DNA from: a virus
Taxonomy: Duplodnaviria > Heunggongvirae > Uroviricota > Caudoviricetes
Reading direction: 5' to 3' (one strand)
Virus record (IMG/VR): IMGVR_UViG_2711768072_000012
Length of the DNA: 10,030 bases
The stretch's first letter is position 1. The number at the start of each line of letters is the position of its first letter. A program made the position numbers and the translations under genes. The notes under the pieces are model-generated. The model had not been told where the DNA came from. It did no database searches and was given only the letters and a program-made list of their open reading frames with translations. This document shows positions 5,703-9,628 of the stretch, one piece after another.

Positions 5703-6341
5703 ATGAAGATGAAAAACATGTCTGAAGTGTTGACCCAAGAAAAGCTTATTTTTGTTGCCCAGAGACTAAAGGCCCTCGCGCAGTCAGGCCTGACCTATTC
5801 AAAAGACGTCTTTGACAAGGAACGCTATGAAGCCTTGCGTGAAATTGCCGCTGGACTGCTGAGTTCGCAGTTTGATATTAGCCGCAATGATTTGTTTCAT
5901 GTATCGGAAACGGGTTACGCGACGCCCAAAACAGATGTGCGTGCGTTTATCCTGCGTAATAATCGTATTCTGATGGTGAAAGAGGCTGCAGATGGATTAT
6001 GGAGTCTTCCTGGCGGATGGGCAGATGTTGGAGATACACCTTCTGAAGCTGTGCGTCGAGAGGTCGAAGAAGAAACCGGATTAAAAGTCAGAGTGACTAA
6101 ACTATTGGGAGTTTGGGATCGTAATCTTCACGGCCATCCGCCTTTACCCTGGCATGTTTACAAGCTGATTTTTCTCTGTGAAGAAGTAGGTGGCAGCCTG
6201 TCAATCAGCCATGAGTCACTCGATGCTGATTTTTTTGATGTCAACGACCTGCCTGAATTGTCGCTTTCAAGAATTGTGCCTGAGCAGATTGCTGTCAGCC
6301 TGAGAGTAGCGAAAGGTGATGAAAAAACATGGTTTGATTAA
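5703..6341 (+). CDS. NUDIX hydrolase with N-terminal extension
   Basis: Nudix box GGWADVGDTPSEAVRREVEEETGL fits Gx5[E/D]x7REUxEExGU with D at the first acidic position. An ~80-aa N-terminal domain precedes it. Start is ambiguous between ATG 5703, 5709 and 5718; SD is weak and the upstream region is AT-rich. Confidence 0.8.
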   Translation: MKMKNMSEVLTQEKLIFVAQRLKALAQSGLTYSKDVFDKERYEALREIAAGLLSSQFDISRNDLFHVSETGYATPKTDVRAFILRNNRILMVKEAADGLWSLPGGWADVGDTPSEAVRREVEEETGLKVRVTKLLGVWDRNLHGHPPLPWHVYKLIFLCEEVGGSLSISHESLDADFFDVNDLPELSLSRIVPEQIAVSLRVAKGDEKTWFD

Positions 6342-6370
6342 CTTTCTTCTGCAACCATTAAGGAATGGCA

Positions 6371-7009
6371 ATGATATTCAACGCTAAGGGTTTTTTATTC
6401 GATATGGACGGTACGCTGGTTGATTCAACAGCCGTAGTGGAAAGCGTCTGGAGAGATTTTTGTGCAGAATACGGTCTTGATACTCAGGCTGTGATTGCTT
6501 ACGCACACGGGCGGCAAACGATTGATACACTGACGCATTTTATTGGTGCAGGTGAGAAAACCAATAAAATCGCGGCCTCACTCGAAGAGGTTGAAATCAA
6601 CACGACAGAAGGCGTTACTGAAGTAAAGGGGGCCGCTGCACTCTTATCAAAACTGCCACCGGATAGCTGGGCACTTGTCACTTCTGCAGGCAGAATGCTT
6701 GCCGAAAACAGGATGAAAGCGGCTAATCTCCCCTTACCCATAGTAATGGTGTGTGCAGAAGATGTAATGACGGGAAAACCAAGTCCCGAGGGTTACATCA
6801 AAGCAGCTTTGGCTTTGGGCCTTGAGCCTGGTGAATGCGTGGTATTTGAGGATGCATCTGCGGGTATAAAAGCAGGGCTGGCAAGTGGAGCTTCGGTAAT
6901 AGCTGTTCAGCCTGACGCTCTGGGATCATCTGAAGCCCATGCCGTCAGCGAACTGTCTGACATTATGGTCAAGATTTCCGGAGAACGTTTCAATATCATC
7001 TGTGGTTAA
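6371..7009 (+). CDS. HAD-superfamily hydrolase (beta-phosphoglucomutase/phosphatase-like)
   Basis: HAD motifs: FDMDGTLVDS (motif I), VTSAG, TGKPSPEGY (Lys motif) and FEDASAGIKAGLASGA. ATG 6371 is preferred because AAGGA at 6360-6364 gives a 6-nt spacer; the track start is 6365. Lies 23-29 nt after the NUDIX stop. Confidence 0.8.
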   Translation: MIFNAKGFLFDMDGTLVDSTAVVESVWRDFCAEYGLDTQAVIAYAHGRQTIDTLTHFIGAGEKTNKIAASLEEVEINTTEGVTEVKGAAALLSKLPPDSWALVTSAGRMLAENRMKAANLPLPIVMVCAEDVMTGKPSPEGYIKAALALGLEPGECVVFEDASAGIKAGLASGASVIAVQPDALGSSEAHAVSELSDIMVKISGERFNIICG

Positions 7010-7069
7010 TCACGTTACACAATACGCATCAATGGACGCTGAGTAGCTCGCGAGTTTTAAACTTCCAAC

Positions 7070-7093
7070 GTCCGCTTTTCGCTCAAAGCGGAC
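7070..7093. repeat. Hairpin (arms GTCCGCTTT / AAAGCGGAC) downstream of the HAD gene
   Basis: Perfect 9-bp inverted repeat with a 6-nt loop, and no U-tract. Shares its arm sequence with the hairpin at 5604-5627, and both are followed by a similar (A)TAG.AGGT tail. Confidence 0.5.
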
Positions 7094-7272
7094 TAGAAGG
7101 TTAGCTTGCGTCGGACTTGGCGTATTTAAAGAAGTGCTGGTGGTGACTGGTTGTTGTGTTCCATTTCTACAGAACAAAATCACAGAAACTATACCCAATA
7201 GTTGTATTGAATCACTGACGAGACAGCCTCATATTTATCAGGACTGGTGTACGTCCAATACAGGAGGTTGTG

Positions 7273-7362
7273 GTGCTGGTTCTCAAATGTGCGCTGGCTA
7301 TTGCTGCTGTAATGGCAATTTATTGCCTTGCTGTTGTTCTTATGGATCGCCTTTCTGATTGA
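7273..7362 (+). CDS. possible small hydrophobic peptide (~29 aa, GTG start)
   Basis: AGGAGG at 7263-7268 followed by GTG at 7270/7273. Encodes VLVLKCALAIAAVMAIYCLAVVLMDRLSD, a single predicted TM helix. The frame choice is uncertain. Confidence 0.2.
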   Translation: MLVLKCALAIAAVMAIYCLAVVLMDRLSD

Positions 7363-7369
7363 TTTCATA

Positions 7370-7398
7370 TTGGCGAGGTGACGGGAGTTAAGTAGAAT
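7370..7398 (+). promoter_or_regulatory. candidate hok mRNA promoter
   Basis: TTGGCG (7370-7375), a 17-nt spacer, then TAGAAT (7393-7398). The predicted 5' end near 7405 (GGGTGCTTGAGGC) resembles the hok mRNA 5' tac region and is complementary to the 3' segment at 7780-7792. Confidence 0.4.
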
Positions 7399-7439
7399 GG
7401 CTGCGGGTGCTTGAGGCTATCTGTCTCAGGCATGAACAC

Positions 7440-7530
7440 CAAAGGCAGATAGAGAAAAGCCCCAGTTAACATTACGCGTCCTGCAAGACGCTTAACATTA
7501 ATCTGAGGCCATATCTATGCTCTACACACG
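7440..7530 (-). ncRNA. sok: predicted Sok-like antisense RNA region (approximate bounds)
   Basis: Inferred only from hok/sok locus architecture: the antisense RNA is normally complementary to the mok leader and start. Minus strand around 7530-7560 has a weak TTGCCT-17-TAACCT promoter-like pair. Ends are not determined. Confidence 0.3.
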
Positions 7531-7729
7531 TAGGTTAGCCTCTTACGTGCCGAAAGGCAAGGAGAAGCAGGCTATGAAGCAGCAAAAGGCGATGCTAATC
7601 GCCCTGATCGTCATCTGTTTAACCGTCATTGTGACGGCACTGGTAACGAGGAAAGACCTCTGCGAGGTACGAATCCGAACCGGCCAGACGGAGGTCGCTG
7701 TCTTCACAGCTTACGAACCTGAGGAGTAA
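7517..7729 (+). CDS. mok: mok-like upstream reading frame, here in frame with hok
   Basis: ATG at 7517 opens a 70-codon frame that runs into and through hok in the same frame. The leader resembles the mok leader of hok/sok loci. Confidence 0.35.
   Translation: MLYTRRLASYVPKGKEKQAMKQQKAMLIALIVICLTVIVTALVTRKDLCEVRIRTGQTEVAVFTAYEPEE
7574..7729 (+). CDS. hok: Hok/Gef family type I toxin (51 aa)
   Basis: MKQQKAMLIALIVICLTVIVTALVTRKDLCEVRIRTGQTEVAVFTAYEPEE has the Hok TM segment and the conserved TRKxLCE...R.G..EVA.F.AYE pattern. By recollection it is closest to HokD/RelF. SD AAGGAG at 7559-7564 with a 9-nt spacer. Confidence 0.85.
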   Translation: MKQQKAMLIALIVICLTVIVTALVTRKDLCEVRIRTGQTEVAVFTAYEPEE

Positions 7730-7797
7730 GAGACCAGGCGAGGGAGAAATCCCTCGCCACCTCTGATGTGTCAGGCATCCTCAACGCACCCGCACTT

Positions 7798-7820
7798 AAC
7801 CCGCTTCGGCGGGTTTTTTA
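7798..7820 (+). terminator. intrinsic terminator (UUCG tetraloop hairpin + T6) ending the hok transcript
   Basis: TAACCCGCTTCGGCGGGTTTTTT: stem CCCGC/GCGGG, extendable to 7 bp, with a TTCG loop and six Ts. Confidence 0.7.
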
Positions 7821-7867
7821 TTGGTTGACAAAATTATGAATATGCACCAATATCTTGGTTGACAAAA
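7821..7867 (+). promoter_or_regulatory. Two direct copies of TTGGTTGACAAAA (each containing a TTGACA -35 hexamer): candidate promoter/operator of the downstream cassette
   Basis: Identical 13-mers at 7821-7833 and 7855-7867, 34 bp apart, between the hok terminator and the first cassette gene. Confidence 0.4.
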
Positions 7868-7902
7868 GTCGTTTTTTGCACGGATTAGGCGGAGAAGTGT
7901 CT

Positions 7903-8496
7903 ATGCAGAACCATCCATTCCCTTGGGAGTTCTTTCCTGAGTTAACAGAGGAGCGTTTAACCATTATAGCTGAGGAGTTGCTCAGGATACAGGATATTAC
8001 TCATGAGTTATTGTCATCGCCCTATGATGATAATTACACTCGTGGTGGTTGTACATTTGGGCGTCAGCGGCAGGCGTTGCTACAAATGTGCGTACGAAAG
8101 ACATATGACTGGTTAAGACTACTTAATCCTGGCATGGATCTTACGTTTTCAATTGGGAATGTCCCTATTCGTTTCTTTACTGATGACGCAGATAACCCCA
8201 AGAAACGCGGTTTTTTCAAAAGAAATGATGCTGATCGACTCTTTGAGTCAGAGGAGACTACTCCAACTATGCATCGCTTTGTGGTTGAAAAGCCTGAATT
8301 TGAAGGCGAGGGTGGTAGAGTCATTTTTAATGGCTATAACGTGTTTGGTGAGATCGTGTCAACTTGGACATATGGTGCGGACCGTGTTGTTATGCTGAAC
8401 TCTGTCGATGATGTACCTCCAGCACCGGTACCTATCGAACTAGAACCTATCAGTGCGTCTAAGACTGAGAAGGAAAAGAAACAAAATAGCAAATAG
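7903..8496 (+). CDS. uncharacterised protein (~197 aa), upstream partner of the HTH-peptidase; candidate effector/toxin
   Basis: ATG at 7903 with GGAG at 7891-7894 (8-nt spacer); the track's 7855 start is TTG inside the repeat. Acidic, no TM segment, no catalytic motif recognised, with a Pro/Lys-rich tail. Stop lies 10 nt before the next gene. Confidence 0.65.
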   Translation: MQNHPFPWEFFPELTEERLTIIAEELLRIQDITHELLSSPYDDNYTRGGCTFGRQRQALLQMCVRKTYDWLRLLNPGMDLTFSIGNVPIRFFTDDADNPKKRGFFKRNDADRLFESEETTPTMHRFVVEKPEFEGEGGRVIFNGYNVFGEIVSTWTYGADRVVMLNSVDDVPPAPVPIELEPISASKTEKEKKQNSK

Positions 8497-8506
8497 TGGG
8501 TGAAAT

Positions 8507-9628
8507 GTGTTTAACGGTACTAATTTAAGACTTGCTCGTCTGTATCACGAGCTATCTCTGGAGCAGGTTGCTGAGAAGGTTGAAAAAACACGCCAGTATG
8601 TACAGCGACTGGAGTCTGGTTCAGCTACTCCATCCCCAGAGCTTATAAATAAATTAGCCGAGGTTTTGCGCGTGAAGCCCGCCTTTTTCGAAGGGCAGGA
8701 ACATTCTCCTGTTAATGAAGAGATTGTACATTTTCGTAAACGCGCCTCGACAAGGATGTCAACGAAGCTATCAACACTCGCTAAGGCTGAGTTTTATCGT
8801 CGTTTTATTGATGTATTTGAAGATAACCTTAATTTGTCACCTGTTCGATTTCCTGAATTTCGTGTCCATACACAAGAAGATATCGAGCGAGCGGCAGAAA
8901 AATGTCGTATTGAGTGGGGCTTAGGCTTTGGCCCAATTGAAAATATGACTCGCCTTGCCGAGAAACTTGGGGCGTTTGTTACTTCATTTGACTCCGTTTC
9001 GGATGAAGTAGATGCACTGTCTGTTCCTCTGCGAAGGCCTTTTATTGTTCGAAATACAGCTAAAAATTCACCTTGTAGGCAACGCTTTGATATTGCTCAT
9101 GAGGTTGCCCATTTGATTCTTCATGAAGGAATTTCTACTGGGGATAGATTAACTGAATCCCAGGCAAACCGTTTTGCCTCTGCTCTGTTGCTTCCCAGAA
9201 CGTCGATGGCGAAATATTTTCCAAGACCTGTGGGGGGGAGGATAAATTGGCAGGGACTAAGCCAATTTAAGTTGACATGGAAAGTAAGTAAGGCTGCCAT
9301 TGTTTACAGGGCTCATCAATTAGGACTTTTGACTGATGAGCAGTACAGAACTGCATTTATGGGGTTGAAACGGAAAGGGGAAGCTATTGATGAAAAAGAA
9401 GATTATCTAATCCCTCATGAGCGTCCTGAGTTATTCCGTCGGGCTTTATCGTTTTTATTTGAAGAGTTAGGATACGACCCACAGCGTATAGCTGATGAAA
9501 TGGATATAGAAGTGGACATTTTTTATGAGTTAGTAGGAGATGATCTTCCTGCGGTTCATGAACTGCCAGGAAGTGGTGATGTTGTTTCACTACAATCTTA
9601 CCGAACTCTTAGAGGCAAAATTCACTAG
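8507..9628 (+). CDS. XRE-family HTH fused to ImmA/IrrE-type (M78, COG2856-like) zinc metallopeptidase (373 aa)
   Basis: N-terminal HTH (LSLEQVAEKVEKTRQYVQRLESGSATPSPELINKLAEVL). Zinc-binding HEVAH in IAHEVAHLILHE followed by ESQANRFASALLLP, the typical ImmA/IrrE signature. GTG start at 8507 with GGGTG upstream. Confidence 0.85.
   Translation: MFNGTNLRLARLYHELSLEQVAEKVEKTRQYVQRLESGSATPSPELINKLAEVLRVKPAFFEGQEHSPVNEEIVHFRKRASTRMSTKLSTLAKAEFYRRFIDVFEDNLNLSPVRFPEFRVHTQEDIERAAEKCRIEWGLGFGPIENMTRLAEKLGAFVTSFDSVSDEVDALSVPLRRPFIVRNTAKNSPCRQRFDIAHEVAHLILHEGISTGDRLTESQANRFASALLLPRTSMAKYFPRPVGGRINWQGLSQFKLTWKVSKAAIVYRAHQLGLLTDEQYRTAFMGLKRKGEAIDEKEDYLIPHERPELFRRALSFLFEELGYDPQRIADEMDIEVDIFYELVGDDLPAVHELPGSGDVVSLQSYRTLRGKIH

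Follow-up and report, generated by a model that had tools for sequence, protein, structure and literature searches.

A very probably intact hok/mok/sok toxin-antitoxin locus with mok and hok in one frame in the early region of a lambdoid Escherichia prophage

The window analysed here, a 10,030-nt stretch of a Caudoviricetes record (IMGVR_UViG_2711768072_000012), carries a Hok-family toxin gene behind a leader with the look of a hok mRNA, and it raises the question of whether a hokD-like gene can form a complete hok/sok locus of its own, free of relBE, and whether the placing of mok in the frame of hok makes it a special case. A reading made from the letters before any search (the original prediction) had proposed such a complete-looking locus at positions 7370-7820. 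[quoted passage not shown] The locus is an ordinary, already known prophage module.

To establish the identity of the locus, the whole window was scanned with Rfam, and RF01794 was found to match 7405-7579 of the plus strand with 114.7 bits against a gathering score of 59 (E = 3.6e-26). The match covered the full model (1-157 of 157) and was the sole one above threshold in the window. RF01794 is titled 'sok' but in fact models the leader strand of the hok mRNA, so that the match reports leader homology and not antisense expression. Below threshold, isrK, rsmX and ceN48 also matched the locus; we put these matches down to chance or to a general likeness among two-hairpin RNAs. The toxin frame matched Pfam HOK_GEF at 2.9e-23 (81.6 bits against a cut-off of 22) and PHROG 251, a family named 'MokW-like host killing' in PHROGs, at 7.8e-33; its 51-aa product was identical to HokD (RelF) of E. 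coli K-12. As the original prediction had it, the locus looked complete: tac, ucb, the Sok target hairpin, the mok Shine-Dalgarno (SD) sequence with dcb, fbi, a terminator and a promoter candidate of its own were all present (Table 1). Comparison with R1-type and chromosomal hok loci confirmed the mok frame, tac and fbi, and the leader was free of truncation. Automated annotation calls just the 51-aa 'HokD' CDS and omits mok, sok and the RNA elements; the coordinates given here make the annotation of this prophage segment complete.

Table 1. Coordinates of the observed and predicted features of the hok/mok/sok locus in the window
Feature	Position	Strand	Composition and remarks
hok/mok mRNA promoter candidate	7370..7398	+	-35 TTGGCG (7370-7375), 17-nt spacer, -10 TAGAAT (7393-7398)
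Full-length hok/mok mRNA (predicted), ~415 nt	7405..7819	+	Bounds from Rfam model start and intrinsic terminator
tac (translational activator) element	7405..7416	+	GGGTGCTTGAGG, as RNA GGGUGCUUGAGG; pairs with fbi in full-length mRNA
Sok antisense RNA candidate, ~71 nt	7455..7525	-	~15-nt single-stranded 5' tail, long hairpin, U tract
ucb, anti-SD box	7457..7465	+	AAGCCCCAG; predicted to sequester mok SD in full-length form and to join tac stem when processed
mok Shine-Dalgarno	7505..7508	+	GAGG, 8 nt before mok ATG (GAGG-N8-ATG, 7505-7519)
mok ORF, 70 codons	7517..7729	+	In frame with hok, common stop codon
sok promoter candidate	7532..7560	-	-35 TTGCCT (7560-7555), 17-nt spacer, -10 TAACCT (7537-7532)
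dcb (downstream complementary box)	7537..7542	+	AGCCUC; predicted to pair with mok SD region in processed mRNA; third Rfam hairpin
hok toxin ORF, 51 aa	7574..7729	+	ATG 57 nt downstream of mok ATG; SD GGAG 7561-7564
3'-UTR hairpin	7737..7758	+	GGCGAGGGA-GAAA-UCCCUCGCC; predicted in both folds
fbi (fold-back inhibition) element	7779..7791	+	CCTCAACGCACCC, as RNA CCUCAACGCACCC; complementary to tac
Intrinsic terminator	7798..7819	+	AACCCGC-TTCG-GCGGGTT and T run; 7-bp stem, UUCG loop; also in folds

The predicted mRNA was then considered from its 5' end. The promoter candidate, obtained in a consensus scan, is sigma-70-like with 9 of 12 consensus matches, its -10 hexamer is kept in the hokW locus of E. 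coli Sakai, and transcription is predicted to start at about G7405, the base that corresponds to position 1 in RF01794. Folding of the full-length 415-nt RNA gave a minimum free energy (MFE) of -171.8 kcal/mol (z = -7.6 against shuffles) with the 5' and 3' ends paired; in this MFE fold the first 12 nt of the RNA pair with 7779-7791. The tac/fbi duplex comprises 12 pairs with one bulged base, an arrangement expected 0.01 times by chance in the window as judged from shuffles, and its energy is -21.5 kcal/mol. It is conserved across loci and, in almost all of those compared, was found some 345-375 nt further downstream than tac. One pair covaries, being U-A in Escherichia and C-G in Photorhabdus, Pantoea and R100; the corresponding stems read GGGUGC/GCACCC in Escherichia, GGGCGC/GCGCCC in Photorhabdus and Pantoea, and GGCGC/GCGCC in R100. 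The near-complementary ends resembling tac/fbi that had been noticed earlier are thus real as to their pairing and the 5' element at 7405-7416, but the 3' element had been placed one base too far downstream, at 7780-7792 instead of 7779-7791. The UUCG-loop terminator that was said to end the transcript was recovered as such.

Further pairings were found between these ends, the names of ucb and related elements following Le Rhun et al., 2022 (PMC9841398). When the RNA is full-length, its MFE fold joins GCCCCAG of ucb to CUGAGGC (7503-7509), a stretch with the mok SD in it. The arrangement of the processed form is seen in the structure line of the Rfam match, where GGG(U)GCUU pairs with AAGCCCC at 7457-7463 as the tac stem and the Sok-target hairpin spans 7464-7502, while in the third Rfam hairpin GAGGC (7505-7509) with the mok SD pairs with GCCUC (7538-7542) of dcb. 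The hairpin in the 3' UTR shows a compensatory change from A-U to G-C relative to Sakai hokW, and by its likeness to the R1 locus (PMC9841398) it is likely the stem that would protect the 3' end of the processed mRNA.

On the opposite strand, a candidate for the antisense RNA was delimited. The -10 hexamer of its promoter candidate agrees with the consensus at 3 of 6 positions, and the candidate fell below the threshold of a simple promoter scan. The region is nevertheless identical at 29 of 29 positions to the sokW promoter of Sakai, mutation of which abolished antitoxin activity (PMC8621323). Both ends of the Sok candidate are set by homology: the 5' end by analogy with annotated K-12 sokC, which starts opposite the 9th base of mokC, and the length from the 71-nt sokW (PMC8621323). 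The candidate RNA folds with -30.8 kcal/mol (z = -4.8), and its hairpin is extended by a GC-rich stretch of 16 nt in comparison with the Rfam consensus and hokC. At the level of sequence, these features make up a putative cis-encoded Sok gene with its promoter inside mok.

The frame of mok was examined next to that of hok. The ATG at 7517 lies in frame with hok, as originally read, with an offset of 57 nt and a shared stop codon, and the 70-codon ORF contains all 51 hok codons. An N-extended Hok from the mok start, which had been envisaged, is therefore encoded, and the predicted mok product would be Hok with 19 additional residues (MLYTRRLASYVPKGKEKQA) in front. A sequencing error as the source of the in-frame reading was ruled out, since the 57-nt spacing occurs in dozens of independent genomes. 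The arrangement GAGG-N5-10-ATG is found in nearly all related loci, and when its distance to the hok ATG was taken as the offset in a scan with one genome per species, the offset was 57 nt in most Escherichia, Shigella, Photorhabdus, Pantoea and Erwinia loci and 58 or 56 nt elsewhere. Among relatives the mok-to-hok distance was 56, 57 or 58 nt even where the Hok protein is identical.

A 262-nt query segment that we take to be R1-type hok/sok was used for comparison with plasmid loci. R100 (NC_002134) and over 2600 plasmids contain this segment with 100% identity; the mok ATG of the segment lies 58 nt upstream of the hok ATG and opens 70 codons in another frame. This agrees with the original prediction, by which mok and hok of R1 are read in different frames, the frame being established here from the sequence; Le Rhun et al., 2022 reported R1 mok to have 70 aa (PMC9841398). 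The R1/R100 locus shares with that of the window the tac/fbi end pairing, ucb, the mok SD GAGG, dcb and a cis-antisense Sok transcribed from a promoter within mok (PMC9841398). It differs in being plasmid-borne and acting in post-segregational killing, and in its Hok, which is about 44% identical (the figure as reported for HokW versus Hok). In an IncFII plasmid variant with a Hok identical to that of R100, mok is in frame. As the mok of R1 runs past the hok start, where a stop codon placed in it had no effect (PMC9841398), and as offsets vary from 56 to 58 nt, the frame of mok is mechanistically irrelevant to coupling; where it is in frame, a 70-aa N-extended Hok results as a by-product. Nor does the frame define the wider hok family, because in K-12 mokB is out of frame, unlike mokC and mokA.

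We also compared the locus with those on the K-12 chromosome. K-12 hokD (relF), which belongs to the Qin prophage, encodes the identical Hok, has a homologous hok SD, 3' UTR, fbi and terminator, and lies like the window locus upstream of a DUF968/Q region in a lambdoid prophage. However, it lacks tac, ucb, sokT, the mok start and the sok promoter and has relBE in their stead, whereas the window has a complete leader. In the alignment, homology ran from the hok SD (AGGAGAAGCAGGCTATG) to the terminator only, with the 3' end of relE upstream; this bears out the earlier description of K-12 hokD as sitting behind relBE without regulatory elements of its own. The window itself was correctly described as free of relBE, as no RelB or RelE homologue was found in it by tblastn. 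The hokC/mokC/sokC (gef) locus of K-12 has a homologous leader and an identical tac sequence; mokC lies 57 nt upstream of hokC, in frame and with the same stop, and sokC is antisense to it as described above. It differs by another Hok protein, by a Sok hairpin without the 16-nt extension and by being disrupted by an IS186 just past hokC. Of the remaining pairs, mokA and hokA share a stop codon and are in frame, while mokB and hokB are 58 nt apart and out of frame.

The distribution of the locus was determined in genomes and phages. Window positions 7300-7900 were matched in 4943 of 5426 complete E. coli genomes, and 2116 of the 5426 hold at least 80% of that segment. In IMG/VR, at least 576 viral loci encode a relative of this Hok. 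The best 80 of these all encode the identical Hok; 77 have a full leader with tac, two a K-12-like relE junction and one other upstream sequence. Among the hokD-type loci with full leader (n = 75, including the window), the in-frame spacing of 57 nt was found in 64 and that of 56 nt in 11. The oddity that the original prediction had implied for an in-frame mok and an autonomous context is refuted by these counts and by the in-frame mokC and mokA. It is the relBE-hokD arrangement of K-12 that is the exception, not the present locus. The comparison thereby corrects a textbook impression, in that the relBE-hokD fusion of K-12 and the out-of-frame mok of R1 are particular cases, and a complete locus with in-frame mok is the common form in Escherichia prophages. 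Beyond the correct annotation of a prophage segment, the significance of this is small.

The closest characterised relative was hokW-sokW of the Sakai prophage Sp5 and phage 933W, with 93.1% nucleotide identity to the window locus over the mRNA. The published hokW-sokW primers match the Sakai ECs_1245 locus. There a 213-nt CDS, annotated 'regulatory protein MokC for HokC', is a 70-aa in-frame Mok-Hok ORF. In both loci the Sok hairpin is extended by 16 nt, for a Sok of about 71 nt, and both are set in a lambdoid prophage. Besides the identical sok promoter, the Sok body is 98.2% identical, but the Sok 5' tail only 62.5%, with 6 of 16 positions of the Sok 5' tail/sokT differing between the window and SokW. 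As Sok is cis-encoded, its target in the window changes along with the tail. The C-terminus of Hok reads FTAYEPEE in the window and FVDYESEK in Sakai, and Sp5 diverges immediately past fbi and is without the UUCG terminator found in the window. hokW lies near the right end of Sp5, whereas the window locus is in the early/nin region; when hokW was sought in the early region of Sakai Sp5 by local blast, there was no match.

This relative has been shown experimentally by Takada et al., 2021 (PMC8621323) to be a type I toxin-antitoxin system. Toxicity of HokW and its location in the inner membrane were demonstrated, as was its counteraction by sokW expressed from the own promoter of sokW. Northern blots revealed both RNAs, and contributions of RNase III and Hfq were also shown. 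RecA is needed for the response to mitomycin C, in which sokW is depleted and HokW induced, with faster lysis and phage release as the result (PMC8621323).

A mechanism can be proposed for the window locus on the pattern of these systems. Toxicity of Hok, repression by Sok and activation through 3' processing of the mRNA are known from hokW-sokW (PMC8621323) and R1 (PMC9841398), and the promoters, RNA ends, 3' processing, toxicity and Sok activity assumed here are modelled on such homologues. A constitutive promoter would give a stable mRNA of about 415 nt, in which tac would pair with fbi and ucb would sequester the mok SD; by analogy with R1, and with the pairings taken from sequence and fold, this full-length RNA should be neither translated nor bound by Sok. 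Slow trimming from the 3' end, again as in R1, would remove the terminator and fbi, and the 5' end would then refold to the tac stem, exposing the mok SD and the Sok target. At this stage the unstable Sok of about 71 nt would pair with the mok initiation region, a step we infer here and one demonstrated for the 93%-identical hokW-sokW, so that mok translation would be blocked and the duplex marked for RNase III. Ribosomes on the first 19 mok codons would, if coupling works as in R1, open the hok start site, and Hok, presumably a 51-aa inner-membrane toxin, would be made only when Sok is depleted. In Sp5, DNA damage depletes SokW, and HokW then hastens lysis and phage release; a role of this kind most likely applies to the window locus as well.

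The same recognisable elements might instead belong to a decayed, non-functional relic like the hok loci of K-12, with at least one of promoter, 3' processing and mok coupling dead and the locus carried neutrally. All five K-12 hok loci are indeed damaged or truncated (IS186 by hokC, IS150 in mokA/sokA, IS186 by hokE, relE replacing the hokD leader), the sok -10 hexamer of the window is weak, and, by the account in a preprint (bioRxiv 10.1101/2025.08.07.668861), the native chromosomal hokA, hokB and hokC gave no post-segregational killing in earlier tests, so that the activity of a given copy is not to be assumed. However, the window locus has no IS element, frameshift, stop codon or truncation, every element of it aligns to the full Rfam model, its Hok is identical to a known toxic protein and its sok promoter to the functional one of sokW. 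Moreover, its exact leader variant (MLYTRRLASYVPKGKEKQA) is the commonest among the 75 phage-borne hokD-type full-leader loci, being found in 20 of them, which argues for maintenance over decay. We regard decay as very improbable.

A different question is whether the in-frame 70-aa Mok-Hok could be a functional product, that is, an N-extended toxin isoform in its own right, separately targeted or regulated. The predominance of the in-frame arrangement, both among the 75 hokD-type loci and in most Escherichia, Photorhabdus, Pantoea and Erwinia loci, would suit such an isoform, as would RLASYxPKGKE, the C-terminal portion of the extension, whose amino-acid sequence is conserved out to Photorhabdus. 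But this conserved part overlaps dcb, the sok -10 and -35 hexamers and the hok SD, so that constraints on RNA and promoter explain its conservation. mok codons 2-5 are, on the other side, the most variable columns of the whole locus, and loci with 56-nt spacing (11 of the 75 with identical Hok) or 58-nt spacing are out of frame. A functional isoform accordingly deserves hardly any credence, and an intact hok/mok/sok module with the 70-aa protein as by-product is the reading we prefer.

The variability within this preferred module was mapped along the locus. Column entropy in the transcribed region peaks at 7511-7530, which comprises the Sok 5' tail, its target and mok codons 2-5. The mean entropy was 0.72 bits over mok codons 1-5 (7517-7531) against 0.10 in the tac stem and 0.11 in the sok promoter; that the CDS shows little entropy is in part an effect of choosing the sample for an identical Hok protein. 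At least 10 discrete variants of the stretch 7510-7530, from the mok SD to the sok -10, occur among the 75 loci. This variability hot spot at the Sok tail and target, in a locus that is highly conserved elsewhere, may be a new observation. It is conceivable, though on present evidence rather doubtful, that 7510-7530 is under diversifying selection by which prophage hok/sok copies in one cell avoid cross-repression. Were this the case, prophage addiction or lysis-timing modules would follow an 'incompatibility-group' logic, and such selection would incidentally account for the varying mok frame and the hypervariable N-terminus of Mok. In a look at three genomes only, one Shigella flexneri and one E. 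coli genome each held three different Sok-tail variants, and one IMG genome held two identical ones.

The prophage setting was finally determined. The window represents the early region of a Rac/Qin-like lambdoid Escherichia prophage, with its best match in E. coli strain 600029 (98.1% identity over 76% of the window). The gene order in that strain is racR, an HTH protein, ydaT, replication genes, DUF1627, DUF977, a NUDIX hydrolase, a HAD hydrolase and hokD, followed by DUF968, RusA and an antiterminator. In the window, racR/cI, cro, ydaT, replication genes and DUF977 were found upstream of the locus, and relatives have DUF968, RusA and Q downstream. A 30-aa hydrophobic ORF upstream (7270-7362), considered as a second toxin, was present in just 16 related loci; it had no family match, and its codons showed 4 synonymous and 3 non-synonymous changes among these 16. 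On the other side of the locus, the genes at 7855-8496 and 8507-9628 match PADLOC RmrT (7.4e-93) and RmrA (4.3e-201), and in phage Tritos and E. coli Z1323CEC0012 hokD is followed by the same two genes as in the window. The locus directly adjoins this candidate RmrTA (Rosmer-type) defence pair and the NUDIX/HAD pair, and the segment is therefore a typical prophage moron/defence island.

The hok/mok/sok locus, a type I toxin-antitoxin module of the hokD/hokW subtype, was found to vary most in a short region on both strands, which holds the 5′ tail of the candidate antisense RNA Sok, the Sok target and mok codons 2-5 (coordinates of all features are collected in the table). At least 10 discrete variants of this region were observed among 75 hokD-type loci with a full leader, all of which encode an identical Hok. 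When compared with sokW of the Sakai prophage Sp5, the same region showed 62.5% identity, whereas the Sok body and promoter were 98-100% identical.

Features in and around the hok locus (window positions)
Feature	Position	Strand
NUDIX hydrolase gene	5703-6341	+
HAD hydrolase gene	6365-7009	+
Segment (~330 nt) with the 30-aa ORF	7068-7404	
SD AGGAGG	7262-7267	
30-aa ORF	7270-7362	+
Variability hot spot	7510-7530	both
UACG motif	7712-7715	+
Stretch of the hok 3′ UTR with the isrK match	7738-7819	+
Direct repeat, first copy	7821-7833	+
Direct repeat, second copy	7855-7867	+
RmrT-like gene	7855-8496	+
RmrA-like gene	8507-9628	+

The hok Tyr47 codon UAC lies within a UACG motif (CUUACGAAC). According to the summary in bioRxiv 10.1101/2025.08.07.668861, UACG is the context reported for TadA A-to-I editing of hok mRNAs, which recodes Tyr to Cys. 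The Tyr47 codon has the same context and is a candidate editing site.

At the 3′ end of the locus, homology between the window and the characterised Sp5 hokW locus (L073 ~35310-35400, aligned to window 7796-7830) stopped right after fbi, and the UUCG terminator of the window was absent from the matching place in Sp5; the 3′ end of hokW mRNA must therefore differ. The hok 3′ UTR also gave a sub-threshold Rfam match to isrK, an sRNA of the Salmonella prophage Gifsy-1. This match reached 31.2 bits, where the gathering score is 50, with an E-value of 1.8e-5 on the short stretch searched, and probably reflects only the common shape of two hairpins plus a terminator.

Between the hok terminator and the start of rmrT, a 13-nt exact direct repeat (TTGGTTGACAAAA; 0.04 expected by chance) was detected; its second copy and the TTG start codon of the rmrT ORF as listed overlap. 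Since the repeat contains TTGACA, its copies are candidate promoter -35 elements or a candidate operator for the HTH protein encoded downstream. The two genes directly 3′ of the hok terminator matched RmrT (7.4e-93) and RmrA (4.3e-201) in PADLOC, and together make up a candidate anti-phage pair, RmrTA (Rosmer-type). In the RmrA protein, an HTH is combined with an ImmA/IrrE M78 peptidase domain; a further match, to the NCBIfam spr1629-family repressor/antitoxin, scored under the cut-off. The same order, hokD followed by the RmrT/RmrA gene pair, was found in E. coli Z1323CEC0012 and phage Tritos.

Just 5′ of the hok promoter, a strongly hydrophobic 30-aa ORF (MVLVLKCALAIAAVMAIYCLAVVLMDRLSD) is preceded by a strong SD and had no match in Pfam, NCBIfam or PHROG. 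It lies in a segment that is associated with hok at some of the loci only, and was intact in 16 related loci with 4 synonymous and 3 non-synonymous changes, too few to judge coding. Upstream of hok, the NUDIX and HAD hydrolase gene pair matched part of the P2-like Peduovirus P24C9 at 99.3% identity and appears to be a moron cassette common to unrelated phage types.
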